Source of the DNA: Thermoplasmatota archaeon
GTDB taxonomy: Archaea; Thermoplasmatota; Penumbrarchaeia; Penumbrarchaeales; Penumbrarchaeaceae
DNA: 64,000 nt
Assembly (NCBI GenBank): GCA_965234725.1
Contig: CBDDUX010000003.1
Coordinates: forward strand, 32,001-96,000
Reading direction: 5' to 3'
Under the pieces are notes generated by a model. It saw only the letters and a list, made by a program, of their open reading frames with translations. It was not told the origin of the DNA and searched no databases. The first letter of the stretch is position 1. Every line of letters begins with the position of its first letter. A program made the translations under genes and the position numbers. Positions 34,395 through 57,272 of the stretch are shown here, piece by piece.

Positions 34395-34549
34395 CGGAGT
34401 TCCTCCTGGTCGTCGGAGAGGCTGTAGTCTGTCCAAGTAAAAATCGATGCCGGTTGGCTATATAACTTTCTGGTTCAGTTACAGAGGTATAGAATCAAGA
34501 ACATGTCAAGGATTTCTATAATCTATATCCCATTTACCTTGTGCTTTAC

Positions 34550-37126: not shown

Positions 37127-38440
37127 ATGGCTTATGAGTTGAGATGGGGAAACCGGACATGGATCTATGCCCTTGCACTTGGCCTTGGGATCGGAATGGC
37201 AGTCCTGTTGTTGTTCAAGGATATGTTGGGTGAAATAGCATTCTGGAGTTATTATTCTCCCATGCTCGGTTATTATGTCCTCATATCCATTTGCCAGAGC
37301 CATTATTTCAGAAGGGAGCCGAAACCTGATATGGGAGGATTGTTCAGACAATTTGTTTCCATTTTTGGAGCCATAGTCATATTCTTTTTAAATCAGGCGG
37401 TCATGGAATCCATTTTTGTTGTTCCAGATGGTTTCATCATGGCGGGTCATTTCACATTCATTGTCTTTGGATTCTTCATTTACGGATTTGATGATTTCAT
37501 GTTCAAAGGAAAATTGCTAGGATGGATGAAGAATGATACGACCAAGGCATTTTTCTGGTATTTTTTCATATGGCTGATATGGGTAGTTCTTTTCTACAGT
37601 GATTTTGGCATATCAAAAGCCCATTCCAAGGACACCTGGGATGGATTGGCACAGAACAGGATGCTGGCAATAAGTCAATGGGCGATCATTATGTCCCTTC
37701 TCTATGCACTTCTGTTCAAGGATTGGCTTCCAGAACTTCAAAATAAATTAAGATTGAAGAATGATATCGTTTACGGTATCTTTCTCCTTCTTGCAGCTTT
37801 TATCATCGGGGGAGGTATCGCTTACCTGTTGTTTACAATGGCACCTTACATATCCCCGGAAGGGTATGACAGCCTGGTTGCGGATCCGGGTGTGAATGTC
37901 GACTCTGATATGTGGCATCATATCTTGTATATGGGAACTTTCCCATTGATACCTGCTATTCTGATAGGGGTCTATACCAAGAACTTCAACCACCTTCCTG
38001 GACCTGGCGAGAGGGTCATAAAGAGATTGATGATCTTCATACCCTCTGTCATAGTATTGTATTTCGCATATCACTGGTTGATAGCCCGGCCTGAAGTGTT
38101 CATCAATTACTTCTTTGATGATGCGGTTAAACCGGGATTAGGCCTTTTTGGAGAATCACATCATAACTGGTACCATCAACTGGACCTTTACTTCAACTTC
38201 ACTGTTTCCATTATTCCACTGACACATCATTGGTTCTGTGGAAGATATGGTTTCGTCAGGGAGGTTGACGATGAAGAACCTGAGAGTCCACCTCGGAGCA
38301 GGAGACCGGTAACAGTTGATGAGAGAAGGTCCAGGGAGAGGAGGGAAGTTATCTCTTCCGGAAGACCTGTAAGGGCTTCACCCAGGGAAAGGTTCCACTC
38401 TGAGAATGAACGGGACCTATCACGTCGCGAATGGCGATGA
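37127..38440 (+). CDS. Hypothetical polytopic membrane protein with Arg/Glu-rich C-terminal tail
   Basis: About 10 hydrophobic segments; charged low-complexity tail; divergent from paaK. Confidence 0.65.
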   Translation: MAYELRWGNRTWIYALALGLGIGMAVLLLFKDMLGEIAFWSYYSPMLGYYVLISICQSHYFRREPKPDMGGLFRQFVSIFGAIVIFFLNQAVMESIFVVPDGFIMAGHFTFIVFGFFIYGFDDFMFKGKLLGWMKNDTTKAFFWYFFIWLIWVVLFYSDFGISKAHSKDTWDGLAQNRMLAISQWAIIMSLLYALLFKDWLPELQNKLRLKNDIVYGIFLLLAAFIIGGGIAYLLFTMAPYISPEGYDSLVADPGVNVDSDMWHHILYMGTFPLIPAILIGVYTKNFNHLPGPGERVIKRLMIFIPSVIVLYFAYHWLIARPEVFINYFFDDAVKPGLGLFGESHHNWYHQLDLYFNFTVSIIPLTHHWFCGRYGFVREVDDEEPESPPRSRRPVTVDERRSRERREVISSGRPVRASPRERFHSENERDLSRREWR

Positions 38441-38681: not shown

Positions 38682-39965
38682 ATGGCACGACGGGGTATAA
38701 GGGAATACGATGCAAAGAGAGTATTTTACAGAATGATGCCTAAGTATACCGGTGAGAAGGTGACCTTCGATATCATGCCCATATTGGTGGGTCCGGATAC
38801 TGATTTAGATATGCTTGTGGATGACAATCCCTGGCTTGAGAACATCAGATTGGTTGTGAAACCCGATCAGCTTTTCGGAAAGAGGGGGAAATCCGGTCTG
38901 GTCCTCTTGAACTGTTCTTTCGATGAAGCAAAGAACTTCATCAAGCAGAAAATGGGTAAGAATGCCACTGTTGGAAAGGTAAAGGGTAGACTTGAATATT
39001 TTCTAGTGGAACCATTCCTTCCTCATGACCTTGAGTATTATATTGCAATGAAGATGGATGCTGATGGGGACCATATCTATTTTTCAACTCAGGGAGGAGT
39101 GGATATTGAATCTGTCTGGGAGACAGTAAAGGAGGTCACCATCGGACCCCTGGATGATCCAGAACTTGAAACTAAGGATCTTCTCAAGGATAATTCAGCC
39201 CAGGAAAAGAAATTACTTACTCCTTTTCTCAAGGGTATGTACAAATTCTTTGTTAACCATGATCTTGTCTATCTCGAGATAAATCCATTCACCATCGTTG
39301 ATAACAAGATCAAAGTTCTCGACATGGTTGCCAAGGTGGATGACACTTCCATGTGGCAGGATATTGGTACATGGGATTTCAAAGAGTTCCCGGAACCCTT
39401 CGGCAAGGACCCCACCCCTGAAGAAGCATACATCAAATCACTGGATGAGAAGACAGGAGCTTCCCTTAAATTGACGATCCTCAATCCGGAAGGCCGAGTA
39501 TGGACAATGGTAGCAGGTGGGGGAGCATCTGTTGTATATGCGGATACCATAGTGGATATGGGTTTTGGAAAAGAACTTTCCAATTATGGTGAATATTCAG
39601 GTAATCCATCCACCGAGGAGACATACCTTTATGCTAAAACGGTCCTCTCAATGATGACAAAAGAGCCCCATAAGACCGGAAAAGGCAAGATACTGATAAT
39701 CGGAGGAGGTATCGCAAATTTTACTGATGTCGCTAAGACATTCACGGGTATCATTCAAGCACTCCGTGAATATGCTGACCAGATGAAGGAGGTTGGGGTC
39801 AGGATCTATGTTCGAAGAGGCGGTCCCAATTACAAAGCCGGTCTGGAGAATATGAGAGAGGTTGGCTCAGAGATTGGTATACCCATCAAAGTGTTCGGTC
39901 CGGAAGTTCATATGACCTCAATTATTCCAATGGCTTTAAAAGATGAAGGAAAGGGGGTGAACTGA
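38682..39965 (+). CDS. aclB: ATP citrate lyase, small (beta; ATP-grasp/citrate-binding) subunit
   Basis: IREYDAK, VVKPDQLFGKRGKSGL, MVAGGGASVVYADT, NYGEYSG.P, IGGGIANFT, RRGGPNY. Confidence 0.93.
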   Translation: MARRGIREYDAKRVFYRMMPKYTGEKVTFDIMPILVGPDTDLDMLVDDNPWLENIRLVVKPDQLFGKRGKSGLVLLNCSFDEAKNFIKQKMGKNATVGKVKGRLEYFLVEPFLPHDLEYYIAMKMDADGDHIYFSTQGGVDIESVWETVKEVTIGPLDDPELETKDLLKDNSAQEKKLLTPFLKGMYKFFVNHDLVYLEINPFTIVDNKIKVLDMVAKVDDTSMWQDIGTWDFKEFPEPFGKDPTPEEAYIKSLDEKTGASLKLTILNPEGRVWTMVAGGGASVVYADTIVDMGFGKELSNYGEYSGNPSTEETYLYAKTVLSMMTKEPHKTGKGKILIIGGGIANFTDVAKTFTGIIQALREYADQMKEVGVRIYVRRGGPNYKAGLENMREVGSEIGIPIKVFGPEVHMTSIIPMALKDEGKGVN

Positions 39966-41803
39966 TGGAACCATACCTTCTTTTTTCAAGGGATTCAAAA
40001 GCAATAGTATACAATATGCAGACAAAGGCTGTTCAGAGAATGCTGGATTTCGATTACCTTTCAGGTAGGGAGAAACCTTCCGTAGCTGCTATAGTCAATC
40101 CGGGTAACTCCGGTACACATAAAGCTCACTGGGGAACCGGTGAGATACTAATACCCATTATGCCATCGATAAAGGCGGCTACCGATGTCAACAAGGAAAT
40201 CGATGTTGTGGTAAACTTCGCTTCGTTCAGGTCGGCCTACCAGAGCACAAAGGAAGCTTTGATGAACGAGCAGATCAGGGTAGTAGCCGTCATTGCAGAA
40301 GGTATCCCGGAGAGGAAGGCAAGGGAGCTTGCTTATCTGTCGAAGAAGCTTGATAAGGTAATAATTGGCCCTGCGACGGTTGGAGCGATCGGAGCCGGAG
40401 TCTTCAAGGTTGGTAATACTGGTGGAACACTTGAGAACATCAAAGAGCAGAAACTCTACAGAAGAGGTTCTGTGGGACTGGTGACAAAATCCGGAGGCCT
40501 TCTCAACGAGATGTTCAACATTGTTTCGCATAATACAGATGGGATATTCGAGGGAGTTGCCATCGGTGGTGATAAATATCCGGGTTCAAGTCTTATCGAT
40601 CATCTGTTAAGGTACGAAGCAAATCCAAAGATCAAGATGATGGTGGCTCTAGGAGAACTGGGTGGTGATGAAGAATACAAGGTCGTCGAAGCTGTTAAGA
40701 AGGGACTTCTCACCAAACCCATAGTATTCTGGGTGATGGGAACATGCTCCAAGATGTTCCCTTCGGGAGTTCAATTCGGACATGCCGGAGCGAAGGCCGG
40801 AGCGGAGACCGAGACAGCTGACGCAAAGAACAAGGCTCTGAAGAAGGCCAGAGTGATCGTTCCAAGTTCTTTTGATACCTTGGGTGATGAGATCGCAAGG
40901 ACCTTCATCAAACTCAAGGATGAGGGTAAGATAACACCCATCGAAGAACCGAAGCATATTCCATTGATTCCGGTGGATTATGCGGATGCCTTGAAGAAAG
41001 GAATGATCAGAAAACCCACATCCTTCATCACTACCGTTGCGGATGATCGGGGGGAGGAGGTCAATTACGGAGGATATCCAATATCCGAGATCGTCCATGA
41101 CGGTGGAACGGTTGGTGATGTCATAGGTCTCCTATGGTTCGGGAGAAAATTCCCAAAATGGGCTTCCAAGTTCATGGAGATGGCAATTATGGTAGTTGCT
41201 GACCATGGACCCGCCGTATCAGGAGCCCACAACGCCATCATAGCCTCCAGGGCCGGAAAAGACCTTGTCAGCTGTCTTGCTTCAGGTCTGCTTACTATAG
41301 GTCCCAGGTTCGGTGGAGCAATTGACGGTTGTGCCAATTTCATGAAGAATGCCTACTACAGTGATCTGGAACCAAGGGCTTTCGTCAAGGAAATGAAAGA
41401 TAAGAACATAAAGATACCAGGGATAGGTCACCGTGTCAAATCCCTGGAGAATCCGGATGGAAGGGTCACACTCCTGATCGAGTATGCCAGGAAGAATTTC
41501 CCTAAAACAGATATCCTGGATTATGCGATCGATGTCCAGGCTGTGACAACCCAGAAGAAATCCAATCTGATCCTCAACGTGGATGGTACCATTGGAGTTC
41601 TGATGGTGGATATGCTCACCAATGTGGGATTCTTCTCAAAGGAAGAGGTAGACCGGATCGTAGAGCTTGGATACCTCAACGGGATCTTTGTCCTTGGCAG
41701 GTCTATAGGTCTGATAGGACATGCACTGGACCAGAAGAGGCTCAATGAGAGATTGTACAGACATCCATGGGAGGACATCCTCTACATGGTTGAGAGGAAG
41801 TGA
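39965..41803 (+). CDS. aclA: ATP citrate lyase, large (alpha) subunit
   Basis: QRMLDFD, NFASFRSA, phospho-His motif QFGHAGA, ADHGPAVSGAHN, GIGHRVKS, LILNVDG. Confidence 0.94.
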   Translation: MEPYLLFSRDSKAIVYNMQTKAVQRMLDFDYLSGREKPSVAAIVNPGNSGTHKAHWGTGEILIPIMPSIKAATDVNKEIDVVVNFASFRSAYQSTKEALMNEQIRVVAVIAEGIPERKARELAYLSKKLDKVIIGPATVGAIGAGVFKVGNTGGTLENIKEQKLYRRGSVGLVTKSGGLLNEMFNIVSHNTDGIFEGVAIGGDKYPGSSLIDHLLRYEANPKIKMMVALGELGGDEEYKVVEAVKKGLLTKPIVFWVMGTCSKMFPSGVQFGHAGAKAGAETETADAKNKALKKARVIVPSSFDTLGDEIARTFIKLKDEGKITPIEEPKHIPLIPVDYADALKKGMIRKPTSFITTVADDRGEEVNYGGYPISEIVHDGGTVGDVIGLLWFGRKFPKWASKFMEMAIMVVADHGPAVSGAHNAIIASRAGKDLVSCLASGLLTIGPRFGGAIDGCANFMKNAYYSDLEPRAFVKEMKDKNIKIPGIGHRVKSLENPDGRVTLLIEYARKNFPKTDILDYAIDVQAVTTQKKSNLILNVDGTIGVLMVDMLTNVGFFSKEEVDRIVELGYLNGIFVLGRSIGLIGHALDQKRLNERLYRHPWEDILYMVERK

Positions 41804-42014: not shown

Positions 42015-45931
<3,917 letters not shown>

Positions 45932-45932
45932 A

Positions 45933-46832
45933 TCATTCCACCTCTTCTGGGGATGGTATATCAAGTTCTGCAGCCTCGGCCATTGCAAGTATCTTCTCTG
46001 CCTTCAGAACAATAGGCCGATCCACCATTTTCTTTCCAAGCGCAATGACCCCCCATCCTTTTTCTTTGGCGATCTGGATGGCCTTTTTCACTCTGACGGC
46101 ATAGATGATCTCTTCCTTCGTTGGGTTAAAGACATCATGGATGATCTCGATCTGAGATGGATGGATACATGCCTTGCCATCGAATCCCATCTTCCTGATC
46201 ATATCTGTTTCACTTCTGAGACCATCAGAATCGCTGAAATCGGAATATACCGTATCTATTGCCTGGATCCCTGCGGCTTTGGCTGCCAGGACGATCAACT
46301 GCCTTGAGGTATGTATGGCAATACCATCGGATGATCTGATGCCACCTAGGTCAGCTGTTAGGTCTTCTCCGCCAATGGTTATTCCTTCCAGCCTTTTAGA
46401 GCAGAATGCGATCTCCTTTGAGTTGAGAATGCCCTTTGCAGTCTCCATGGTTGCAAAAAGCTTGATCCTTCCGATCGGAAGTCCCTTCTTCTCTTCCATT
46501 TCAGTTACAAGTTCATCGACTTGGATAACATCCTCTGGAGTTTCTGTTTTTGGGATATATATACCATCCAATCTGGGACAGACTATCTGCCTGATATCCC
46601 ATTTTCCCCAGGGTGTGCTGATAGGATTTATCCTTACGGTCACTTCCACATTTGGACCGAAATCCACTACCTTCAAAGCTTCAGATACGAGCATCCTCGC
46701 ATCTACTTTAAAATCGGGATGAACGGCATCTTCAAGATCGAGTGAGATAACATCGGCACCGTAAAGACCGGCGGGAGGTATCATTTTGGGATTATTACCA
46801 GGGACATAGAGTCTGGACCTTCTTAGCTTCAT
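45933..46832 (-). CDS. citE: Citrate lyase beta chain (citryl-CoA lyase)
   Basis: LRRS.LYVPGNNP, DLEDAV, VRIN, ETAKG, GFDGK..IHPSQI, MVD.P. Confidence 0.93.
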   Translation of the reverse strand: MKLRRSRLYVPGNNPKMIPPAGLYGADVISLDLEDAVHPDFKVDARMLVSEALKVVDFGPNVEVTVRINPISTPWGKWDIRQIVCPRLDGIYIPKTETPEDVIQVDELVTEMEEKKGLPIGRIKLFATMETAKGILNSKEIAFCSKRLEGITIGGEDLTADLGGIRSSDGIAIHTSRQLIVLAAKAAGIQAIDTVYSDFSDSDGLRSETDMIRKMGFDGKACIHPSQIEIIHDVFNPTKEEIIYAVRVKKAIQIAKEKGWGVIALGKKMVDRPIVLKAEKILAMAEAAELDIPSPEEVE

Positions 46833-47116
46833 TCGAATGCACCACCCTTGATAGCAGCGGCCTTTATGCGGGCCACTATGGTGAAATTCAATGGGCTGTT
46901 TCCTTTTGACCAGACAAGAGCGTCTTCTATGCCCATGCCTATAAGGGTTTCATGAAAGAGCTTGAATACCTCATCTCTGAACACATCTCTGGATTTCCCC
47001 TCTATCTCGATCTTTATACCTGTTCCAGGTTCCGCAGGGCTGAGTTTTACTATGCAATCCTCTCTCTCTTCGGTCCCTGCGATCCCTTCCCTTTTCAACT
47101 TATACGTCAATGTCAT
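46829..47116 (-). CDS. citD: Citrate lyase gamma chain (ACP-like), lacking the canonical serine
   Basis: 95 aa immediately upstream of citE; IAGTEEREDC aligns with canonical AGTLES(S/G)D; C-terminal TI.ARI.AA. Confidence 0.8.
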   Translation of the reverse strand: MTLTYKLKREGIAGTEEREDCIVKLSPAEPGTGIKIEIEGKSRDVFRDEVFKLFHETLIGMGIEDALVWSKGNSPLNFTIVARIKAAAIKGGAFE

Positions 47117-47143
47117 TTTATCGCCTTTTCTTATTTATCATGA

Positions 47144-49066
47144 TCAGGATATTTGGTTCCTGGTATAGTTCAGAGTGCCTCCCTCTCTAATGACCTCAAT
47201 TTCCCTATCAGAAAGGTCATGGACAAGTGAGATCTTGAGGTTCTTGTTCTTAACTTCCAGGATAAGTTCTCCGGAAAGATCCGATAATCCTATTTGCAGA
47301 AGATCTCCCTGTTCAAGCAGATCGTAGTCCGATTGGTCCTTGAAGGTAAGGGGGAGAATTCCAAAGTTTACCAGGTTAGCCCTATGTATCCTGGCGAAGG
47401 ATTTCACGATAACAGCTTTAATTCCAAGATATTTTGGAGCAAGGGCAGCATGTTCCCTTGAGGAACCCTGACCGTAATTATCCCCTCCGATGATGAATCC
47501 GCCTCCCTTTTCAAGTGCCCTTTTTGGGAAGGTCTCATCGACCTGAGAGAAAACGTATTCAGATATTGCAGGAATGTTCGATCGAAGAGGTAGGATCTTC
47601 GCTCCTGCAGGCATGATATGATCGGTTGTAATATTGTCCTCTACTTTGATAAGAACCTCACCCTCCGCGGAAACCGGTAGTTCATGGAAATCAGGGAGAG
47701 GTTTGATGTTTGGCCCTCTGATTATTTCTACCTTACTAGCTTCATCAGCCGGGAGAGGATGTATGAAAAGGTTGTTATCCACGAGATAGGATTCAGGTTC
47801 CTGGACTTTGGTGAACTTTCCCAGTTTCCTTGGATCGGTTATTTTACCGAAAAGAGCTGTTGCAGCTGCAACCTCAGGGGAGACCAGATAGACATCTGCG
47901 TCCTTTGTCCCCGACCTTCCAGGGAAGTTCCTGTTGAAGGTCCTGACAGATACTGCACCGGATTTTGGTGCAAGTCCCATTCCGATACAGGGACCGCAGC
48001 CAGACTCAAGTATCCTGAATCCTGCCTCAACAAGGTCTCCGTATGCACCAGTTCTTACCATTTCCCTGATGATCGTCCTCGAACCGGGTGATATGGTCCC
48101 TGAGATGTCCTCATGGATCCTTCGTCCTTTTACAGCATTAGCTACGGTCATCAGGTCCCTGAAAGAAGAGTTAGTACAAGACCCGATACAAACTTGGTCG
48201 ACCTTCATTCCCTCTAACTCTGATATCTCTACCACTGATCCTGGGGAATGGGGTTTTGCTGCCATGGGGACAATTGAGGATAGATCGATCTCCATTATTT
48301 CATCATAGACAGCATCCGGATCCGCCTTGATCTCAACCCATTGTTCTCCCCTTCCCATAGCCTCCATGAACTTCTTTGTAACATTGTCTGAAGGGAATAT
48401 CGAGGTTGTAGCACCGGTCTCCGTGCCCATGTTGGTCACTGTGGCTCTGTCAGGTACGGAGAGGGTAGAAACCCCCGGACCGAAGTACTCAAGGATATAT
48501 CCTCTTCCACCCTTGACATCCAATCTTTTCAGTACTTCCAGAATAATGTCCTTACCAGATACCCAATCCGGAAGCTCTCCTGTTAGTTTTATCCCCAAGA
48601 TCTTGGGGTACTTCAATTGGAATGCTCCACCAGCCATTGCAACCGCAATATCCAGACCTCCAGCCCCGATAGATATCTGACCGATACCTCCGGCGGTGGT
48701 TGTATGGGAATCCGATCCGATCAATGTCTTTCCTGGTTTTGAGAACCTTTCAAGGAAGACCTGATGGCATATACCATTCCCAGCCTTTGAGAGGACAATG
48801 CCATATCTCTTTGCAATGGATTGAAGATATCTGTGGTCATCGGCATTCTTGAAATCGGATTGAAGCATGTTGTGATCGATGAAGGAAACGGAAAGTTCCG
48901 TCTTGACCCTGTCGAGGTTCATGGCCTCGAATTGCAGGTACGCCATTGTCCCAGTAGCATCCTGGGTCAAGGTATGGTCCATTCGTATCGCGATCTCTTC
49001 TCCAACTTTTTCAGTTCCTTCCACTAAATGCTCTTTAAGGATCTTCTGAGCCAAGGTAAGTCCCAT
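47144..49066 (-). CDS. acn: Aconitate hydratase (short, ~640 aa type)
   Basis: TLTQDATGT, GSDSHT, [4Fe-4S] ligands IGSCTN and GCGPCIG, FNRNF.GR, ITTDHI.PAG, NYGQGSSREHA. Confidence 0.92.
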   Translation of the reverse strand: MGLTLAQKILKEHLVEGTEKVGEEIAIRMDHTLTQDATGTMAYLQFEAMNLDRVKTELSVSFIDHNMLQSDFKNADDHRYLQSIAKRYGIVLSKAGNGICHQVFLERFSKPGKTLIGSDSHTTTAGGIGQISIGAGGLDIAVAMAGGAFQLKYPKILGIKLTGELPDWVSGKDIILEVLKRLDVKGGRGYILEYFGPGVSTLSVPDRATVTNMGTETGATTSIFPSDNVTKKFMEAMGRGEQWVEIKADPDAVYDEIMEIDLSSIVPMAAKPHSPGSVVEISELEGMKVDQVCIGSCTNSSFRDLMTVANAVKGRRIHEDISGTISPGSRTIIREMVRTGAYGDLVEAGFRILESGCGPCIGMGLAPKSGAVSVRTFNRNFPGRSGTKDADVYLVSPEVAAATALFGKITDPRKLGKFTKVQEPESYLVDNNLFIHPLPADEASKVEIIRGPNIKPLPDFHELPVSAEGEVLIKVEDNITTDHIMPAGAKILPLRSNIPAISEYVFSQVDETFPKRALEKGGGFIIGGDNYGQGSSREHAALAPKYLGIKAVIVKSFARIHRANLVNFGILPLTFKDQSDYDLLEQGDLLQIGLSDLSGELILEVKNKNLKISLVHDLSDREIEVIREGGTLNYTRNQIS

Positions 49067-49235: not shown

Positions 49236-50369
49236 ATGGAAAAAGTGTCAATGATGAAGGGATTATCAACCACAGAGAAGCTTGTCTTCATGGGTCTGAT
49301 CACCTATCCGGACAATAAGGATACAGAGATAGCAGAGATGCTTTCACTTCCAAATTCCACCTTCGCATCGGTAAAATCAAGGATAATGGAGGAAGGTTTT
49401 CTTTACGAGAGATATATTCCCATATTTCCGAACCTTGGATTCGAACTTCTTGCTGCAGTTTACAGTGATTTTAACCCATCTGTATCAGTTGATGAAAGGA
49501 TAGCAAATACCCGAAGGACCGTTGAGATATATCCGGAGATGATACTCTCAATGGGAGAATCCCATAGAGGTTTCTCACTTTCAGTAGCAGAGAATATAAC
49601 CCGGATAATGAGGATATCCCACCAGAGGATGAAGATCCTTGCCGATCTGAACCTTCTGGAGATCGAGTTACCAAGAGAAGTGATATTCCCATTCGAGATG
49701 TCCACAATTCACCGTTTCTTCAACCTGGCCCCCCTCCTGTATGCAAAGCTTTCTGGCGAAAGAGACCTGGTAATGAAGGATATCTCGGGTCTTGAGAGGG
49801 ACATATACAAGAAGGACCCCATCCTTCAGGTAAAGTACCCCAATAGCAAGAAGAGACCGGTGGATGTGAACTTATCTCGGAAGCAGTTGGAGATATTGTA
49901 CTACCTGATAAAACACCCGGAACTATCGGCCTCTCGGCTTTCCACCATCATTCCTTATTCCAGGCATACGATCTCTCGTGCAAGGGAGATGTTAATTGAG
50001 GAAGGATATTTGGCCTGCACTCGTATACCTGATCTTTCCAAATTGGGTTATTCGATGCTTTCACTATTCCATGTGAAGATGGATCCAAAAAACCCCATTG
50101 ATCCTCAGGTATGTAAGAGGAAGGAACTCCTCCAGGATGATACCGTATTCTTTGTATCGAGACCCACAGAGCTGATGATGCTGGCTGTTTACGAGAATTA
50201 CCCACATTATAATAGAGGGATGTCCATATTCAGCCAATATTTGAAAGTCGAGGGATACATGTCAACGATCCCCACGATAAGGAATCATTCTCTTTCCGAG
50301 GCAGTCTGGATCAAGAAGTTCATTCAACATCCGATAATAAAGGATGCTTTCCACCTTGATATTGATTGA
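49236..50369 (+). CDS. Transcriptional regulator with two tandem wHTH + Lrp/AsnC-like modules
   Basis: Two similar units (YPDNKDTEIA...EEGFL...IPIFPNLGFELL and HPELSASRLS...EEGYL...IPDLSKLGYSML); divergent from the acn-cit-icd operon. Confidence 0.7.
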   Translation: MEKVSMMKGLSTTEKLVFMGLITYPDNKDTEIAEMLSLPNSTFASVKSRIMEEGFLYERYIPIFPNLGFELLAAVYSDFNPSVSVDERIANTRRTVEIYPEMILSMGESHRGFSLSVAENITRIMRISHQRMKILADLNLLEIELPREVIFPFEMSTIHRFFNLAPLLYAKLSGERDLVMKDISGLERDIYKKDPILQVKYPNSKKRPVDVNLSRKQLEILYYLIKHPELSASRLSTIIPYSRHTISRAREMLIEEGYLACTRIPDLSKLGYSMLSLFHVKMDPKNPIDPQVCKRKELLQDDTVFFVSRPTELMMLAVYENYPHYNRGMSIFSQYLKVEGYMSTIPTIRNHSLSEAVWIKKFIQHPIIKDAFHLDID

Positions 50370-50394
50370 ACCGGGAAAGGATTATAAGTTATTA

Positions 50395-51099
50395 ATGGAC
50401 AATATAGTGACCATGGAGGAGGTAGTCGGTCTATTCTTGAAGCTTGCCTTAACCCTTCTTCTTTCAGGGATCCTGGGTATTGAGAGGGAGGTTACCGGAC
50501 ATAAAGCAGGGATGAGGACCTTGATCCTTGTTGGTATAGGTGCCGCTTCACTTGTAATGCTCGTTGATCGATTGGATATTCCAAAAGCAGAACTAGGCAG
50601 GATAATAGCAGGTGTTGCGACCGGTATAGGGTTTCTTGGTGCTGGTGCAATTATAAAAGAAGGGATAAATGTAAAGGGACTCACCACCGCAGCCACCATA
50701 TGGGTGACCTCTTCCATCGGGGTGGCAGTAGGTTCAGGTGCTTACTATATTGGGTTCATTACCTTTGCATTCACATTGATAGTCCTTACGATATTCGGGG
50801 TCATAGAAAGGAAGTTCAGGCTCAAACCCAAGGATGGGATCTTGAAGATATCGCTCGAGAAGAACGCTCCGATACCAAGGAAATATCTAAAACAGCTTCA
50901 GGAGAGCGGCGCCAGATTCCCAAGGATCAGTATCGATTCAATAAATAATAAAAAAATTGTGACGATCGATATGGAACTTTCAAGGAAGATGCAGATCCTT
51001 GATCTTATTGATAAGGTAGAAGAGTTCGATGGTGTAAAGAAGGTCGAATGGGAGGACCTTGAAATGAAAGGAACTTCCAATATTCTGAATTCAATATGA
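50395..51099 (+). CDS. MgtC/SapB family membrane protein
   Basis: GIERE..GHKAGMRT..LV, RIIAGVATGIGFLGAG.I, GLTTAATIW. Confidence 0.9.
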   Translation: MDNIVTMEEVVGLFLKLALTLLLSGILGIEREVTGHKAGMRTLILVGIGAASLVMLVDRLDIPKAELGRIIAGVATGIGFLGAGAIIKEGINVKGLTTAATIWVTSSIGVAVGSGAYYIGFITFAFTLIVLTIFGVIERKFRLKPKDGILKISLEKNAPIPRKYLKQLQESGARFPRISIDSINNKKIVTIDMELSRKMQILDLIDKVEEFDGVKKVEWEDLEMKGTSNILNSI

Positions 51100-51133: not shown

Positions 51134-53143
51134 TTACTCACCAGATACCTCTAGCCATCTGTATGCTGATCTTGTATAATCCTGGAAATAACCCCTGTCG
51201 AAGGAGTTACCAGTGCAGAGATAGGATACTATCCTATACAATCCTGGTCCACCCTCTTCCTCTTCCAGCATGAAAGATACAGTGAATGTCTTTTTTTCAT
51301 TCGATGATATATTGAAAGAATGATCCAGTGAGGATATATGGTCACCTCTCAGGTTGTAGATATTGATCCCGAGAAATGCCTCCACATCGTCCTCATCGGA
51401 CAATACTGAATATTGATGCTTCAATGTATCCTTGAATCCGTCACCATCCTCGTCGGTTGTGGTGCAGGAAAGAAGGGCAGTATCGAAATGGAGGACTTTT
51501 GGGGCTCCTGCACCTTCGAGATGATCGAAGTACGTTGAAAGCAGAGCCGTCCATGATGTGTCTTTTGCAAACTTCAGATCTGAATAATCATTGTTCTGGT
51601 CCATAACATCCCTGAAATCCGGCGCGTAAATGGATAATCCCCTCAAACCCTCGATGGACCAACCTCCAACCTGAGTTGAATTGAAGTTCAATACAGCATT
51701 GCTGATATCGTCAAGAACGGTCTGTGACAGTTCTCTGATCGAAGATGTTTCCGTCAATTTCTGTATATTCTCAACGAAATCGAATAGATCGACAGCATCC
51801 GAAGTATGTCCCTCCTGTATGGGTTGAGCATACTTTCTTGCTATGTTCATATTATATAGTTCAGCGGACCCTGATTCTGCAATGGTATTTGAAAGTGTAT
51901 TCAAGGACCTTGCAATGGCATCCATTCCCTTCAGATCATAAACCCCCATGCTCATAGAGGTTTTTGAGCCCAGCTTTCCCATTTGGTCCAGATAGTCAAC
52001 CATGAATAGTTCCGAAAGAGAAGCGGGAGAGATGTATGGATCCTGTTTGAGCTTTCCAAGTGTGAGATAATCCCAACCGTATGCAGGCTCGGTGATCTCA
52101 GATCCTACCATAAGGTCGCAATATGGTGAGATCTCATAAGCTACCTCGAATGCAGACATAAGGCATGCATCGAATCCTAGAATATCCAGATCCCTTCCTA
52201 AATGGGAGGTTATCCTATCCAGAGCCCATCCCAGCTGGTCAATTTTCATGACCTCCTCCTCCTCAAGACTCTGTTCCCAACAGATCCCATCGGTTCCCGA
52301 ACCATGGTTCCATAGGATAAGGGCATTATGATCGGCAGGGTAATTATCCATGGACCAAGTAGCAAAATCCACAAGTTCCTCGGGGTCGGCCGAATCGATC
52401 TCGCCGATATCACTTAACTCCTCTGATGTGATCATTTCACTATCATCATCAAGGTCGATCCTGAACCTCTTTGCAGTTGTCCAATTGCCGTCGGTCCTAT
52501 CATCTTTGGGTGACAGGCTCTCCCATCTATCCAGTTGTACTATAATATTCACAAGGGAAGAAGATCCGATCGACTCCAGCTCATTGATATCTTTCAAAGC
52601 CCAGGATTCAAGATCACAATCGCTCATATAGATCATGAATGTCCATTTGGGAGGGGGTCGATAGACCTTCTCAAATGAGATACTGTCAGAGATATAATCA
52701 GCCTTTTCAGCCGTGATATTTACATTGAAGGTGCCCTCATCATTAAAAGAAGGCAATTCCACAAGTACCTCGAAATTACCATTGGGATCTGAAACAGACC
52801 TGAATTTTTTATCGGAGATACCAGGTATACTCACAGCGACTGATGCGCCATCGATGTCTGCACCCTTTTGGGTCTTGACCTCTCCGGAAAAGGTCATTCT
52901 TGAACCTGAGATCAGCAAGTCAGGACCATCTTTGATGGTAAGAACGAGTTCGGTGTTCTTCTCCTTTCCATCATCTCTTGACGATCCTTGATCATTTATA
53001 TCATAGACAATGTAATAAAAACCAGGGATCGTGAGAAGAAGGAACATCAGAAGTATGACCACTATGACATATAATGCTCTGGATGGAGATCTGGCCTTGA
53101 CCTCAATGGCTCTAATGCTCCTTCCGGTATATCCATTGGTCAT
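51134..53143 (-). CDS. Clostripain-like C11 cysteine peptidase, N-terminally membrane-anchored
   Basis: WTFMIYM..DLE..A..DINELE, LILWNHG.G, ILGFDACLM, SEITEP..GWDY; start ATG 53143. Confidence 0.88.
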   Translation of the reverse strand: MTNGYTGRSIRAIEVKARSPSRALYVIVVILLMFLLLTIPGFYYIVYDINDQGSSRDDGKEKNTELVLTIKDGPDLLISGSRMTFSGEVKTQKGADIDGASVAVSIPGISDKKFRSVSDPNGNFEVLVELPSFNDEGTFNVNITAEKADYISDSISFEKVYRPPPKWTFMIYMSDCDLESWALKDINELESIGSSSLVNIIVQLDRWESLSPKDDRTDGNWTTAKRFRIDLDDDSEMITSEELSDIGEIDSADPEELVDFATWSMDNYPADHNALILWNHGSGTDGICWEQSLEEEEVMKIDQLGWALDRITSHLGRDLDILGFDACLMSAFEVAYEISPYCDLMVGSEITEPAYGWDYLTLGKLKQDPYISPASLSELFMVDYLDQMGKLGSKTSMSMGVYDLKGMDAIARSLNTLSNTIAESGSAELYNMNIARKYAQPIQEGHTSDAVDLFDFVENIQKLTETSSIRELSQTVLDDISNAVLNFNSTQVGGWSIEGLRGLSIYAPDFRDVMDQNNDYSDLKFAKDTSWTALLSTYFDHLEGAGAPKVLHFDTALLSCTTTDEDGDGFKDTLKHQYSVLSDEDDVEAFLGINIYNLRGDHISSLDHSFNISSNEKKTFTVSFMLEEEEGGPGLYRIVSYLCTGNSFDRGYFQDYTRSAYRWLEVSGE

Positions 53144-53246
53144 ATTGGGCCTACCCAGGAGATCAAAGATCATCCCGAAGAAAAAATCAGTTGTTGGACA
53201 CTTAAAGGTTTCCGTCAAACGTTCAAAATGTGAGTCAACCAACATG

Positions 53247-54716
53247 TCATATCCTGTGGCGTCTGTTGATCTTTGCATCCTTTGATGTGGTCCAAAAAAT
53301 CGAAATGAAGAAATAGGATATTACTGCAAGCAGTAAAGAGGATACTATGATGGGAATGAATAATAATTCATTCTCGTTCCAACCTAGTCCATTGAAGATA
53401 TCCAAAGCTATGATCATCGATCCTGTAAGGAATAGCAGGGTCTTTCCGAGTTTCATACTCCAGAAGAACGGGATGAAGGCAAGTATTATGATATAGTATC
53501 CCGAATGGATCTTGGGAAATATCATTAAGAATAATAGTATGAAGAGCATAGAAGTGTTCAGAGTCCCAAATTCCCTTCTGAACGATAAAAGTAGGAGAAG
53601 GGATCCCAGAAGGACAATAACAGCCGTATTGATGAAAGGATAATAGCCGATCTCCCCGAGATACCTCCAGAGGGAGATCCCCTGAAGCTGACCTCCTGAG
53701 TCTCCGGTGAAGTAGAGTTTGGCAAATGTAGCTACACCGTCAGGTGAAAGATAAGTTACAGGAGCAAGGAAGGCTGCAAGGACGACCAAGGCAAAGATGG
53801 ATTTGAAGATCCTCTTGATCAATTTTTCTCTTTCGGATAACAAACCAGGCATCATCAGGAGGTGAAAGACCTTCGTTGCCATCCCGATCCCAATGAGCAT
53901 TGAAGCCCATGCTCCTCTTTTTCGTACGATGGCATGCACCGTCAGGACGAATAGGAATGCCACAATGATATCGTCCTGGACGGCACCGACCGTTGAATAG
54001 ATGGTCAAGGGATTGAGAACAAAAAGGGAACCATATACCACTGATCTCCATTTGCCATCAGGCCAGAATGTTCTCATCACCATGAAGGCTGACATCAGGG
54101 CAAAGAGGGCAAAGTATGTCCTGAATACGATGAATGATCCCCCCAGAAGTGCAGGGAGGATCCAGAATATATTGATCAATGGTGGATTTAGGGTAGGGAC
54201 ATCTTTGTAGATCATCCTGCCTTCGAGCAGGGTCTCTCCTCTGTCTTTGTAGAATGGAGCATCTGTCTCCTTCTTATATACCTCGATCTTCCAGGTTGTG
54301 TTCCTACCTTCCTCTCTTATCTTCTTCACATCACCATCAAGAAGCTTCCAGGTCCGGTTGTCATCATAAGGAGAAGAGGTATAGAGCTTGGTATGGTTCA
54401 CCAGTTCGAGTCTGATGGGAATATAACCACGGGGAGTAAGGACTCGAACATCGCTCCCATTTAAACCGAATTCAATGAAAAGCATGGTGTCGTTGGTTAT
54501 TTCACTATATTCCCAGACATCATCACTTGTGGCAAATAGATCATCCGGTCCTATGGTGACTGTGTAGTGGTCTTCCTGGAAATTCAGACCGGTATATACC
54601 AGTAAAGGTACATAGAATACAAGCCAGGCAGTAAAAATGGTGATAAAGGGATGGAGGGCAAGAGACTCTATCAACTTCCTCTTCAAAGGATGTTTGTTCC
54701 TTGCCCCTCCAGCCAT
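53247..54716 (-). CDS. GT-C fold membrane glycosyltransferase (GT87/PIG-M-like)
   Basis: YKDVPTLNPPL, LNPL.I..T...QDDI, G.ATK.F; many TMs. Confidence 0.7.
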   Translation of the reverse strand: MAGGARNKHPLKRKLIESLALHPFITIFTAWLVFYVPLLVYTGLNFQEDHYTVTIGPDDLFATSDDVWEYSEITNDTMLFIEFGLNGSDVRVLTPRGYIPIRLELVNHTKLYTSSPYDDNRTWKLLDGDVKKIREEGRNTTWKIEVYKKETDAPFYKDRGETLLEGRMIYKDVPTLNPPLINIFWILPALLGGSFIVFRTYFALFALMSAFMVMRTFWPDGKWRSVVYGSLFVLNPLTIYSTVGAVQDDIIVAFLFVLTVHAIVRKRGAWASMLIGIGMATKVFHLLMMPGLLSEREKLIKRIFKSIFALVVLAAFLAPVTYLSPDGVATFAKLYFTGDSGGQLQGISLWRYLGEIGYYPFINTAVIVLLGSLLLLLSFRREFGTLNTSMLFILLFLMIFPKIHSGYYIIILAFIPFFWSMKLGKTLLFLTGSMIIALDIFNGLGWNENELLFIPIIVSSLLLAVISYFFISIFWTTSKDAKINRRHRI

Positions 54717-54766: not shown

Positions 54767-55924
54767 TCAACTATCGGATGAAAGTAGGAATTCCTTGCCC
54801 ATCCTTTTAATACCATATTTTTCCTCGATATCCTTGAATTTCTCTAAGAGACGTGTCTTGTCTCCCATAGTGAGATATTTGTTTGCCAGAGGGAAATAAT
54901 ATTCCTCTTCCCTTTTAAGGTGCTCCCTCAAGATCTTGATATATCTTTTTAGAGCCCTTTTTAGCGCTATATGTTTCATGGAGGATCCGATTGACTTCCC
55001 AATAATGGCTGTTACTCCGCTTCCACAATCCGGACATTCTCCTTTGAAAGAGTAGTTACCAGTTTCCATCTGGAAGATCGTAGGTTCTTTCATGATGACT
55101 TTTTCCTTGCATTTCAGACAGTAGGCTGGAAAATCATCTATATGTTCCATTATATTGTAATCCTTGCTGGCTTCAGGGTCTTTATCAAGGCTCTCCTTGT
55201 AGCTTGTGAACAATTCCTTTATCTCTTCAACCACTGTTTCGAGTTTGACATGTTCTTCTTCGATCAACTTCGATGATGATTCCTTCAGGGTCTGATTCAC
55301 CTCTGACTGGGATTTTATCAATCTATCCATAAAGGCAATCGAGTACTCGTTCTCCTTATCCTGATGTATGCTGGTTTCGAGTACAAAAGATCTTCCTGAA
55401 AGCCAGTCCACCAATTTGTTCTTCGCTTCCTGATCGACCCTTTCGATCAGCTCCTCGAGCTTCTTTGCCTGAAACCTTAGGATACCGTGTTCGTCAAGCA
55501 GGTTTTCAACAGGGTCTGTTTCGCTCTTTTCAACCTCTTCAGGAAGTTCTAGGAAATAATCTATTGCTGTCTCCAACCTCTCCATGATAGTGCTCCTATC
55601 GTATGGTTTGGTGAGTAGATCATTGGCTCCCATCTCCGTGGCGTTCATTATATCATATCTACCACCCCTATCACCAGTGATGATGATATAGCAATCCCTG
55701 TTATTGTGGTGGTTGAGCTCCCTGATCTTGGTGGCCAGTTCAAGTCCATCGATGCTGGGGAGGTTCCAATCTAAAAATAAGATGGATATCTCCTCATCTT
55801 TTTTATATGCCGTTAGGACCTCTCCACCTGAATCAAGGATGATGGGATCGTGTTCCTGTGTCCTCAAAGTGTTGGCAATCATCGTCCTGTAAGCCTCATT
55901 CTCATCAGCTATGATAACCTTCAT
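54767..55924 (-). CDS. Response regulator: receiver + hemerythrin-like (HHE) domain with CxxC-CxxC zinc-ribbon insertion (paralog 2)
   Basis: IADE..LFLDWNLP..DG..IITG..TKP; DEH, HQDKE, EEH, HLKREE..YFP; AYCLKC...GECPDCG; start ATG 55924. Confidence 0.82.
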   Translation of the reverse strand: MKVIIADENEAYRTMIANTLRTQEHDPIILDSGGEVLTAYKKDEEISILFLDWNLPSIDGLELATKIRELNHHNNRDCYIIITGDRGGRYDIMNATEMGANDLLTKPYDRSTIMERLETAIDYFLELPEEVEKSETDPVENLLDEHGILRFQAKKLEELIERVDQEAKNKLVDWLSGRSFVLETSIHQDKENEYSIAFMDRLIKSQSEVNQTLKESSSKLIEEEHVKLETVVEEIKELFTSYKESLDKDPEASKDYNIMEHIDDFPAYCLKCKEKVIMKEPTIFQMETGNYSFKGECPDCGSGVTAIIGKSIGSSMKHIALKRALKRYIKILREHLKREEEYYFPLANKYLTMGDKTRLLEKFKDIEEKYGIKRMGKEFLLSSDS

Positions 55925-56114
55925 AATCAGTCCCCTTTTATTTTTCCACAAAAGATTTTTGTGTATTTAAGGGATTGCCTTGAAATAAATGAGGAATAAT
56001 TGGCAATGCAAGAAAAACTGAATAAGGCAATTTCATCTAAACCGGATGACTTGTATTCAAGCCAATATTGGACCTCAATGTGAAATAAGATCGGATCAAA
56101 TATTCATCGATCGA

Positions 56115-57272
56115 TCAATTTGAAGGGGAAAGAAGAAAATCCTTCCCCATCCTGTGAATACCAAATTCATCCTCTATCTTTTTGAATTCTTCAAGGAGCC
56201 TTGTCTTATCCCCGCTTGTAAGGTACCTATTGGCTAGGGGGAAGTAAAGGTCCTCCTCTCTTTTCAGGTGATCCTTAAGGATATTGAGGTATTTTTTTAG
56301 CGATCTCTTCAGCGCTGCATGTTTCATTATGGCTCCTATGGATTTTCCAATAATGGAGGTGACCCCGCCATTACAATCAGGACAGTTCCCTTTGAAAGCA
56401 TAATTCCCTGTCTCCAACTGGAAAATGGATGGTTCCACCATTACTACTTTATTCTGGCATTTAAGGCAAAATGCAGGATAATCATTCACATGCTTCAAAA
56501 TATTGTAATTTTCTGGAAGTTCCTGCGGGGAATCAAGACTCTCTTTGTAGCTGTTGAACCTGTCCTTCACCTCAGAAACGATCGTATCCAGCTTGTTATG
56601 TTCACTCTCCACCCATTGGGAGGATGATTCGGATAGGGCTTGATTCTCTTCCCCGTGGGCATTCATCAACCTTTCCATGAAAGCTACAGAGAACTCGTGT
56701 TCCTTGTCCTGGTGTACTTTAGTCTCAAGGACAAATATCCTTCCCCCCATCCAGTTTATGAGCTTACTAGGTGCCTCTTCATCCACACTGTCAAGCAGGT
56801 CTTCCAACTTGTCTGCTTGGAATCTTAAGATCCCATGTTCGTCCATTAGATGCTCTACAGGATCCTTCTCGGTCTTTTCGACCTCATCAGGCAGCTCAAG
56901 AAAATGATCGATAGCGGTCTTCATTCTGTCAGCTATGATATTGCTGTCATATGGTTTGGTAATGAGGTCATTCGCTCCCATCTCCATTGCATTCATTATA
57001 TCATACCTTCCACCCTTTTCCCCTGTTATGATTATATAACAATCCCTGTTCATGTGGAAATTGAGGTATCTTATCTTTGTTGCAAGTTCCAATCCATCCG
57101 TTCCTGGGAGGTTCCAGTCCAAAAATAGGATATTGATATCATCATCCTTTTCATATGCATCCAGGACATTTTGGGCTGAATCCAATACAATTGGTTCATG
57201 GTCCTGTCTCCTTAGTGTATTTATTAACATGGTCCTGTAAACCTCATTTCCATCGGCTACTATAACTTTCAT
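56115..57272 (-). CDS. Response regulator: receiver + hemerythrin-like (HHE) domain with zinc-ribbon insertion (paralog 1)
   Basis: Collinear paralog of 54767-55924; LFLDWNLP, DEH, HQDKE, SEH, HLKREE; AFCLKC...GNCPDC. Confidence 0.82.
   Translation of the reverse strand: MKVIVADGNEVYRTMLINTLRRQDHEPIVLDSAQNVLDAYEKDDDINILFLDWNLPGTDGLELATKIRYLNFHMNRDCYIIITGEKGGRYDIMNAMEMGANDLITKPYDSNIIADRMKTAIDHFLELPDEVEKTEKDPVEHLMDEHGILRFQADKLEDLLDSVDEEAPSKLINWMGGRIFVLETKVHQDKEHEFSVAFMERLMNAHGEENQALSESSSQWVESEHNKLDTIVSEVKDRFNSYKESLDSPQELPENYNILKHVNDYPAFCLKCQNKVVMVEPSIFQLETGNYAFKGNCPDCNGGVTSIIGKSIGAIMKHAALKRSLKKYLNILKDHLKREEDLYFPLANRYLTSGDKTRLLEEFKKIEDEFGIHRMGKDFLLSPSN

Follow-up and report, generated by a model that had tools for sequence, protein, structure and literature searches.

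Gene organisation at the locus

We analysed a window of 64,000 nucleotides of DNA from a sediment archaeon belonging to the Thermoplasmatota (assembly GCA_965234725.1, contig CBDDUX010000003.1, positions 32,001 to 96,000), which was searched for genes using Pfam and NCBIfam profiles. The window contains an operon with the order acn-citD-citE-citF-icd, all on the minus strand (Table 1), in which the genes for the three protein families of citrate lyase stand between those for aconitase and isocitrate dehydrogenase. Its CitD-like protein is a member of the acyl carrier family but has an arginine at the place of the serine that anchors the prosthetic group, and this serine-less (Ser-less) form turns out to characterise a deep branch of the family present in many phyla, most genomes of which also lack the genes for making and loading that group. 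On these grounds we think it probable, though well short of certain, that the product of the operon is a citrate lyase, belonging to an ancient branch of its own, that would dispense with the covalent cofactor and act on free acetyl-CoA and citryl-CoA.

The five genes are tightly packed, with spacings of 27, -4, 1 and 26 bases (the negative number being an overlap), and the start of citE overlaps the stop of citD (ATGA). Translation of citF probably starts at the ATG at 45931 rather than at the TTG at 45988 given in the list of open reading frames (ORFs), because homologues begin to match at residue 20 of the listed ORF and this ATG lies 1 base past the citE stop. A first-pass annotation of this DNA had described the operon as consisting only of acn-citD-citE-citF-icd; the gene order was right, but the neighbouring aclB and aclA genes had been missed. 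It had also reported that none of the accessory genes citC, citG and citX is found in the cluster, which is correct. In the archaeon's own family icd follows citF in 12 of 18 loci, and aclA is found beside the cit cluster in relatives too.

With regard to the profile matches, CitD is recognised as a member of the CitD/MdcC carrier family (PF06857, 41 bits against a cut-off of 25.1) and reaches 52.5 bits with the NCBIfam citD equivalog TIGR01608, which is under the cut-off of 63.5. CitE is likewise under the cut-off of its equivalog (TIGR01588, 319 bits against 443), whereas CitF is over that of the citF equivalog (501), and shares 41% identity with its E. coli counterpart along the whole length.

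Table 1. Positions of the operon, its neighbours and other genes in the window
Feature	Positions	Strand	Description and evidence
citD-like gene	46829-47116	-	95 aa; carrier-family subunit without anchor serine; PF06857, TIGR01608, alignment with E. coli CitD
AGA codon, Arg18 of CitD	47063-47065	-	aligned with Ser14 of E. coli CitD, the residue that bears the prosthetic group
citE	45933-46832	-	299 aa; citryl-(CoA) lyase beta subunit; PF03328 206 bits
citF	44285-45931	-	citrate CoA-transferase alpha subunit; PF04223 543 bits, TIGR01584 596 bits
acn	47144-49066	-	aconitate hydratase; first gene of the operon; NF005558 966 bits
icd	42015-44258	-	monomeric NADP isocitrate dehydrogenase; last gene of the operon; TIGR00178 1291 bits
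aclB	38682-39965	+	ATP-citrate lyase; ATP-grasp and citrate-binding domains; convergent with the cit operon
aclA	39965-41803	+	ATP-citrate lyase; CoA-ligase and citrate-synthase-like domains; convergent with the cit operon
TrmB-like regulator gene	49236-50369	+	Pfam; divergent from the operon; beside the cluster in 16 loci of the own family
MgtC-family gene	50344-51099	+	Pfam; divergent; position beside the operon conserved in the own family
C25-family peptidase gene	30417-34436	-	1339 aa
C11 peptidase gene	51134-53278	-	714 aa
Tandem paralogue 1	54767-55951	-	
Tandem paralogue 2	56115-57272	-	
ORF directly upstream of aclB	37127-38440	+	437 aa
ORF without Pfam match	59319-61625	-	768 aa

The anchor serine of CitD is replaced by a basic residue

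Residues 12-21 of the archaeal CitD read IAGTEEREDC, with arginine as residue 18. In a profile-profile alignment made with hhalign, AGTEEREDC was placed over AGTLESGDV of E. coli CitD (the translation of the annotated citD gene in the citCDEFXG locus of NC_000913), which puts R18 on Ser14 (probability 78%, E 1.7e-05), the residue that we take to be the cofactor attachment site of the E. coli protein. The first-pass annotation had read an arginine at the serine position, and both the translation and this alignment bear it out. In an alignment of 30 of the 54 close homologues found, the column equivalent to Ser14 holds arginine in 24 sequences and lysine in six, with serine in none. The codons used at the site in 19 genes of the own family differ (AGG 7, AGA 6, CGT 3, CGG 1, AAA 2). 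Comparison with these genes gave nonsynonymous distances (dN) of 0.11-0.21 with saturated synonymous distances (dS at least 1.8 or not computable), and a dN/dS below 0.1 wherever it could be computed, indicating strong purifying selection.

The replacement extends throughout the phylum. Among 67 CitD loci of the Thermoplasmatota the serine column contains lysine in 36, arginine in 20, glutamate in nine, glutamine in one and asparagine in one, and never serine; the 11 loci with neither lysine nor arginine at the site have an arginine one position later (10) or a lysine one position earlier (1), so that a basic residue is found at the site or at most one position away in 67/67. The cultured archaeon Aciduliprofundum boonei T469 has the same Ser-less form, with MIEAGTHEKGDV as the N-terminus of its CitD-like protein. 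When 44 diverse Ser-less CitD sequences are compared, the only invariant residues are G14, D20 and R83.

An error of assembly or sequencing at this codon, or a citD gene decaying into a pseudogene, would also put an arginine here, and the codon lies within a GAGAGAGAG run, as the first-pass annotation had flagged. Arg18 is nevertheless a real feature of CitD and not a sequencing error, because homologues from many assemblies keep arginine or lysine with differing codons. A contig obtained independently, in another study, from a related strain also crosses 46330-47188 without an indel, the letters at the codon itself not being readable from its table. As to decay, the dN of citD is far below its dS and the operon is tightly packed, and we regard both explanations as having next to no probability.

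A deep Ser-less branch across phyla

The first-pass annotation had treated the missing serine as the oddity of one gene, a view that did not survive the wider comparison, as this CitD belongs to an extensive Ser-less clade that branches deeply and is present in many phyla. A profile search of 1.84 billion representative sequences gave 253 matches, the best 150 of which, a set biased toward the query's own type, included 149 CitD sequences that could be placed: 87 with serine, 53 with lysine or arginine and nine with another residue. The tree of these 149 CitD representatives is too short to resolve (17 changes versus 47.7 in shuffles), and neither shows nor excludes a single origin of the Ser-less type. 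It was therefore replaced by a CitF tree, for which loci were found with a CitF alignment, taking one genome per species. The 77 CitF loci so obtained came from many phyla; the neighbouring CitD was of the Ser-type in 36, Ser-less in 20 and unclear in two, and was not found nearby in 19.

In the CitF tree a deep split separates a clade of 32 tips (clade B; ultrafast bootstrap 100, Shimodaira-Hasegawa-like approximate likelihood ratio test 99) from the remainder, and a quick mixture-model tree agrees. Clade B, which includes the CitF of the source archaeon, comprises 18 tips with a Ser-less CitD, 13 with either no CitD nearby or an unclassified motif, and a single Ser-type archaeon at its base. 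One branch of the CitE tree similarly separates 96 of 101 labelled rows. Members of the Ser-less branch include the Thermoplasmatota with A. boonei and metagenome-assembled genomes (MAGs) labelled as Theionarchaea, Bipolaricaulota, WOR-3, Calditrichota, Krumholzibacteriota, Thermotogae and others. As for gene context, acn adjoins the cit genes in 29 clade-B loci, 17 from the own family and 12 from elsewhere. Only one CitF column discriminates clade B from the classical clade. In CitE, position 7 is arginine in 59 of 62 clade-B sequences and methionine in 31 of 32 classical ones; this Arg7 was considered as a signature for the use of free CoA and rejected, since the solved CitE-like enzymes that use free CoA have E, V, V and Q there.

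Two Ser-less loci, L114 (a MAG of the Sporomusaceae) and L130 (Clostridium thailandense), come from genomes with CitX and CitC and fall in the classical CitF clade; because of this placement, they look like secondary losses of the serine beside an intact system. In the tree of CitE the classical clade holds L114 together with L104, a MAG of the Selenomonadaceae that also has a Ser-less CitD. The L114 and L130 genomes keep CitX, CitG and CitC, and that of L104 keeps CitG only; the CitD proteins of these three loci are probably second, separately derived Ser-less copies. An atypical CitD motif, AGNEKSDDV, in which serine is still aligned at the site, was seen in L108 (Clostridium argentinense) and L146 (C. 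hydrogeniformans). Neither locus has citC, citX or citG within 10 kb, and elsewhere both genomes have CitX and CitG, with CitC found in that of L146 (L108 was not scored for CitC).

Seven clade-B CitF genes from MAGs of the Calditrichota, Acidobacteriota and Delongbacteria (L079, L084, L092, L095, L122, L125 and L129) have no CitD or CitE in flanks of up to 10 kb per side (shorter for L092, L095 and L125), and their genomes are without CitX, CitG and CitC. Such CitF genes lacking CitD and CitE may encode stand-alone CoA-transferases. The source archaeon itself has a second CitF paralogue outside the window (G000:C62:31044-32636, the same as L148:9045-10637, plus strand; 530 aa, PF04223 433 bits), which has no CitD or CitE near it and is located between genes for an rRNA adenine dimethylase and a TPR protein; its genome contains only one CitE and one CitD.

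Genes for synthesis and loading of the prosthetic group

CitX acts as the holo-acyl carrier protein synthase and CitG as the synthase of the precursor, while CitC re-acetylates the thiol (PMC10798043). Profiles for CitG (PF01874), CitX (PF03802) and CitC (TIGR00124), which matched as expected in control genomes including that of E. coli, had no match in the whole 3.54-Mb source assembly (97.65% complete, 2.54% contamination). The absence of the three genes thus extends from the cluster to the assembly, and the combination of such genes elsewhere in the genome with a Ser-containing CitD was looked for there and not found. We extended the search to an even sample of 401 Thermoplasmatota genomes, including the source, 62 of which have a CitD-family domain; CitX was found in 0/61 of the other CitD-bearing genomes.

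The first-pass annotation had proposed checking whether loss of the serine goes together with loss of the loading genes, and this co-occurrence holds across phyla. It was assessed genome-wide for 50 of the 77 CitF loci: all 20 with a Ser-less CitD, the two with an atypical motif, eight of the 19 without CitD and 20 of the Ser-type. CitX, CitG and CitC were each present in 20/20 Ser-type genomes, as against 2/20, 4/20 and 2/20 of the Ser-less genomes, and were each absent from the CitF-only genomes (0/8); CitC scoring skipped one of the 50 genomes. Outside L114 and L130, the Ser-less genomes have neither CitX (0/18) nor CitC (0/18). The searches do work on archaeal MAGs, since all three loading genes were recovered from L101 (Bathyarchaeia), a Ser-type archaeon used as control. 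At least one of CitG, CitX and CitC was encoded in the fetched flanks of 25/36 Ser-type loci versus 0/20 Ser-less loci. Related genomes are not independent samples, and the pattern of co-occurrence spans many phyla.

Catalytic subunits and CitD-CitE fusions

The catalytic parts of the enzyme appear intact, because CitF exceeds its equivalog cut-off and the Mg-binding and catalytic residues of CitE are invariant: D32, E34, D35, R67, E130 and D157 are found in all of 37 clade-B sequences. Of these, E130 and D157 line up with the glutamate and aspartate that bind Mg in malyl-CoA lyase (PMC3832036). Free acyl-CoA esters are the substrates of the characterised CitE-like enzymes (PMC3832036), and the alpha subunit has been described as acting through a ternary complex, no covalent intermediate with the enzyme being formed (PMC9196870).

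CitD and CitE also occur as natural fusions, with CitD at the N-terminus of CitE, in several families of the Thermoplasmatota and in eight bacterial loci. The bacterial fusions (L081, L086, L093, L096, L099, L123, L124 and L135) are located directly upstream of CitF and have lysine at the site in 8/8; seven of the eight loci entered the CitF tree, all falling in the Ser-less clade. The isolated subunits of the classical enzyme, according to Dimroth and Eggerer in 1975, reportedly accept acetyl-CoA and citryl-CoA. Beside the fusions, an ORF with an HD domain (PF01966, about 168 aa; L039:39-542, plus strand) was observed directly upstream of the CitD-CitE fusion in L039, and such an ORF is found at most 6 kb from the CitD-CitE fusions in L039 and 21 further Thermoplasmatota loci, and in none of the own-family loci.

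An AlphaFold2 model of one natural fusion (L020, from a 28-sequence alignment) had a mean predicted local distance difference test score (pLDDT) of 93.2 and a predicted template modelling score (pTM) of 0.89, its carrier domain being as confident as the barrel (pLDDT 81-98 per 10-residue block). The best 29 rows of a comparison of this model with the PDB (Z 28-33) were CitE-like and malate-synthase-type chains that start to match at residue 94-98; a docked carrier domain was thus not among the top 29 rows, which says nothing on whether one exists. Searches by sequence with the clade profile and with the E. coli protein found no solved structure that matches CitD. A model of CitD alone, from 30 close sequences, was poor (pLDDT 54.1) and was not used. 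We read CitD as a docked domain and not as a free swinging arm, because the fusions occur and the fusion model is confident in both domains. The proposal of the first-pass annotation that CitD is retained as a structural part fits the fusions, the two-domain model and the strong purifying selection.

Comparison with known systems

The classical citrate lyase CitDEF with CitC, CitX and CitG (citCDEFXG of E. coli, Klebsiella and lactic acid bacteria; EC 4.1.3.6), the nearest of the described systems, consists of the same three families in the order D-E-F, and the archaeal system resembles it in its equivalog-level CitF and in the retained catalytic residues of CitE. It differs in lacking three features that define that enzyme, namely the anchor serine, CitX with CitG, and CitC, and also in its operon partners, which are acn and icd and not a citrate transporter or oxaloacetate decarboxylase; its CitF is on a separate deep branch, and its CitE has the arginine and not the methionine type of position 7. 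A system of the same kind is the two-gene one of Ignavibacterium album, a citF with a citE-citD fusion, for which no accessory genes were reported and which has been called an ATP-independent citrate lyase with a suggested role in the reverse tricarboxylic acid (TCA) cycle (PMC3362086). The archaeal CitD differs in being a separate 95-aa protein, and the two are likened here by description and not by the I. album sequence. The accessible part of that account mentions neither a lost serine nor missing citC, citX and citG (PMC3362086), and our literature searches, which did not extend to supplementary files, turned up no account either of a CitD lacking the serine or of a citrate lyase without citC, citX and citG.

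The CitE-like lyases that use free CoA esters (malyl-CoA lyase, CLYBL, citramalyl-CoA lyase and CitE of M. tuberculosis) share the triose-phosphate isomerase (TIM) barrel and the Mg-binding glutamate and aspartate with the archaeal CitE; they are its best solved-structure matches by sequence, and the best fold matches for the CitE part of the relative's fusion model. They differ in having neither a CitD domain nor a CitF partner, their solved structures covering the fusion from about residue 95. AclBA and Hydrogenobacter's citryl-CoA synthetase with its citryl-CoA lyase also split citrate, by way of citryl-CoA, into oxaloacetate and acetyl-CoA, but with proteins unrelated to CitDEF, spending ATP and releasing acetyl-CoA and not acetate. 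Finally, MdcC, the acyl carrier of malonate decarboxylase, belongs to the same Pfam family (PF06857) of small carrier folds and has the same cofactor attached to one of its serines by CitG- and CitX-like enzymes, whereas the archaeal CitD has no malonate decarboxylase genes beside it and no such serine.

A citrate lyase that may use free CoA esters

For the chemistry of this branch we favour the following scheme, which the first-pass annotation had already proposed in outline and which the comparative evidence supports without proving it. CitF would move CoA from free acetyl-CoA onto citrate, giving citryl-CoA and acetate, and CitE would split the citryl-CoA into oxaloacetate and acetyl-CoA, with a catalytic amount of acetyl-CoA cycling between the two. 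The CitD-like protein would no longer carry 2'-(5''-phosphoribosyl)-3'-dephospho-CoA and would be a docked domain with an arginine (lysine in relatives) at the former attachment site. Acting with aconitase and isocitrate dehydrogenase, the enzyme would link 2-oxoglutarate, isocitrate and citrate to oxaloacetate and acetate without ATP, in parallel with the ATP-citrate lyase encoded next door. We infer a citrate context because acn is beside the cit genes in so many clade-B loci, and because icd and aclBA are adjacent here.

Several observations weigh against this scheme. The strong conservation of CitD needs a role, which can only be guessed if CitD carries nothing, and the adjacent ATP-citrate lyase makes a second citrate-cleaving enzyme look redundant. 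As CitD and CitE are below their equivalog cut-offs, the substrate could differ, and no enzyme assay, mass measurement or structure was found for any member of the Ser-less clade. The source assembly is nearly complete but not closed, and profile searches cannot reach loading enzymes that are not homologous to the known ones. CitG-family genes do occur in the four Ser-less genomes of the cross-phylum set, and in 2/61 of the other CitD-bearing Thermoplasmatota genomes, where they are on contigs other than that of citD. The hint of expression is weak, consisting of three short contigs in one RNA library (run X7) that possibly contains DNA, and parts of the window had no cover in sequencing runs X2 and X7.

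The same chemistry might run mainly in reverse in the own family, with CitE condensing acetyl-CoA and oxaloacetate and CitF passing the CoA to acetate, so that citrate is made without hydrolysis of the thioester and a missing citrate synthase is replaced. The citrate lyase reaction is near equilibrium, and in the operon the cit genes are joined with acn and icd, for the two steps that follow in the oxidative branch; moreover, a search with PF00285 found a full-length citrate synthase neither in the source genome nor in any of 18 other genomes of the own family, the only PF00285 matches in the family being the partial domain of the AclA type (in 16/18 other genomes). The same operon would, however, serve a reductive route from 2-oxoglutarate equally well, ATP-citrate lyase could itself run in reverse, and PF00285 does not cover the Re-type citrate synthase of the isopropylmalate-synthase family, which was not searched for. 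In addition, an Aciduliprofundum-like family combines the same Ser-less citDEF with a full citrate synthase in 3/4 genomes. We consider a mainly reverse operation to be a possibility of some substance, albeit an unlikely one. The operon could drain 2-oxoglutarate (for example from glutamate) to oxaloacetate and acetate, or equally make citrate. A partial reverse TCA route of the draining kind has been discussed for related archaea (PMC12220078).

It is improbable that the pair is not a citrate lyase at all, being instead a CoA-transferase and lyase for citramalate, malate or a homologue that only resembles CitDEF. The scores of CitD and CitE below the equivalog cut-offs would suit such an enzyme, as would the many acyl-CoA esters on which CitE-like enzymes act (PMC3832036), but CitF is well within the citF equivalog, a single CitF column tells the Ser-less from the classical clade, and the genes are surrounded by those for a true aconitase, a monomeric isocitrate dehydrogenase and ATP-citrate lyase, with acn again adjacent across clade B. 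Still less credit can be given to a CitD that continues to carry a covalent cofactor, either on another residue or on the lysine or arginine itself, through enzymes unrelated to CitX and CitG. Strong purifying selection is what would be expected of a working carrier, and CitD is always retained or fused; against this, the 44 diverse Ser-less sequences share no serine, threonine, cysteine or tyrosine, the interchange of lysine and arginine at the site suits a role for charge and not a covalent link, CitG, the maker of the precursor, is missing from 59/61 and 16/20 genomes, and CitC, required for re-acetylation of the thiol, is missing from 18/20.

The free-CoA citrate lyase thus remains the reading that we prefer, and it can be taken one speculative step further, to a model that we put forward with considerable reserve. 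In this model the lysine or arginine of CitD would bind a phosphate of free CoA, so that CitD would hold non-covalently an exchangeable CoA where the classical enzyme tethers it, and the clade would be ancestral, with a free cofactor, or else would have reverted from the tethered lyase. In the family without citrate synthase the complex would then also form citrate from oxaloacetate and acetate, primed by acetyl-CoA and conserving the thioester, beside ATP-citrate lyase in a branch of the TCA cycle that could run either way.

Other genes in the window

Elsewhere in the window there are two tandem paralogues, each combining a response-regulator receiver domain, DUF5679 and a hemerythrin-like domain. 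The large C25-family peptidase and the C11 peptidase, which is of the clostripain family, fit a protein-degrading way of life. Two further ORFs, one of them directly upstream of aclB, remained without a Pfam match when the threshold was relaxed to E 0.1 (Table 1).

Implications

This archaeon is distinctive in that its CitD is unfused and its acn-cit-icd operon has aclBA as neighbour, within a family that has no citrate synthase. Tools for annotation and pathway reconstruction label such genes 'citrate lyase' and thereby presume the textbook holo-enzyme, whereas those discussed here belong to a deep branch without the anchor and the loading genes. If the enzymes of this branch do use free CoA esters, only two or three genes would be needed for heterologous use, and comparing the two clades would amount to a natural experiment on the reasons for which CoA is tethered in some enzymes but not in others. 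The question is directly testable in a cultured Ser-less archaeon, A. boonei T469. For the organisms themselves, the use of free CoA esters would make ATP-free cleavage or formation of citrate realistic in the reductive or branched TCA cycles of many anaerobes.

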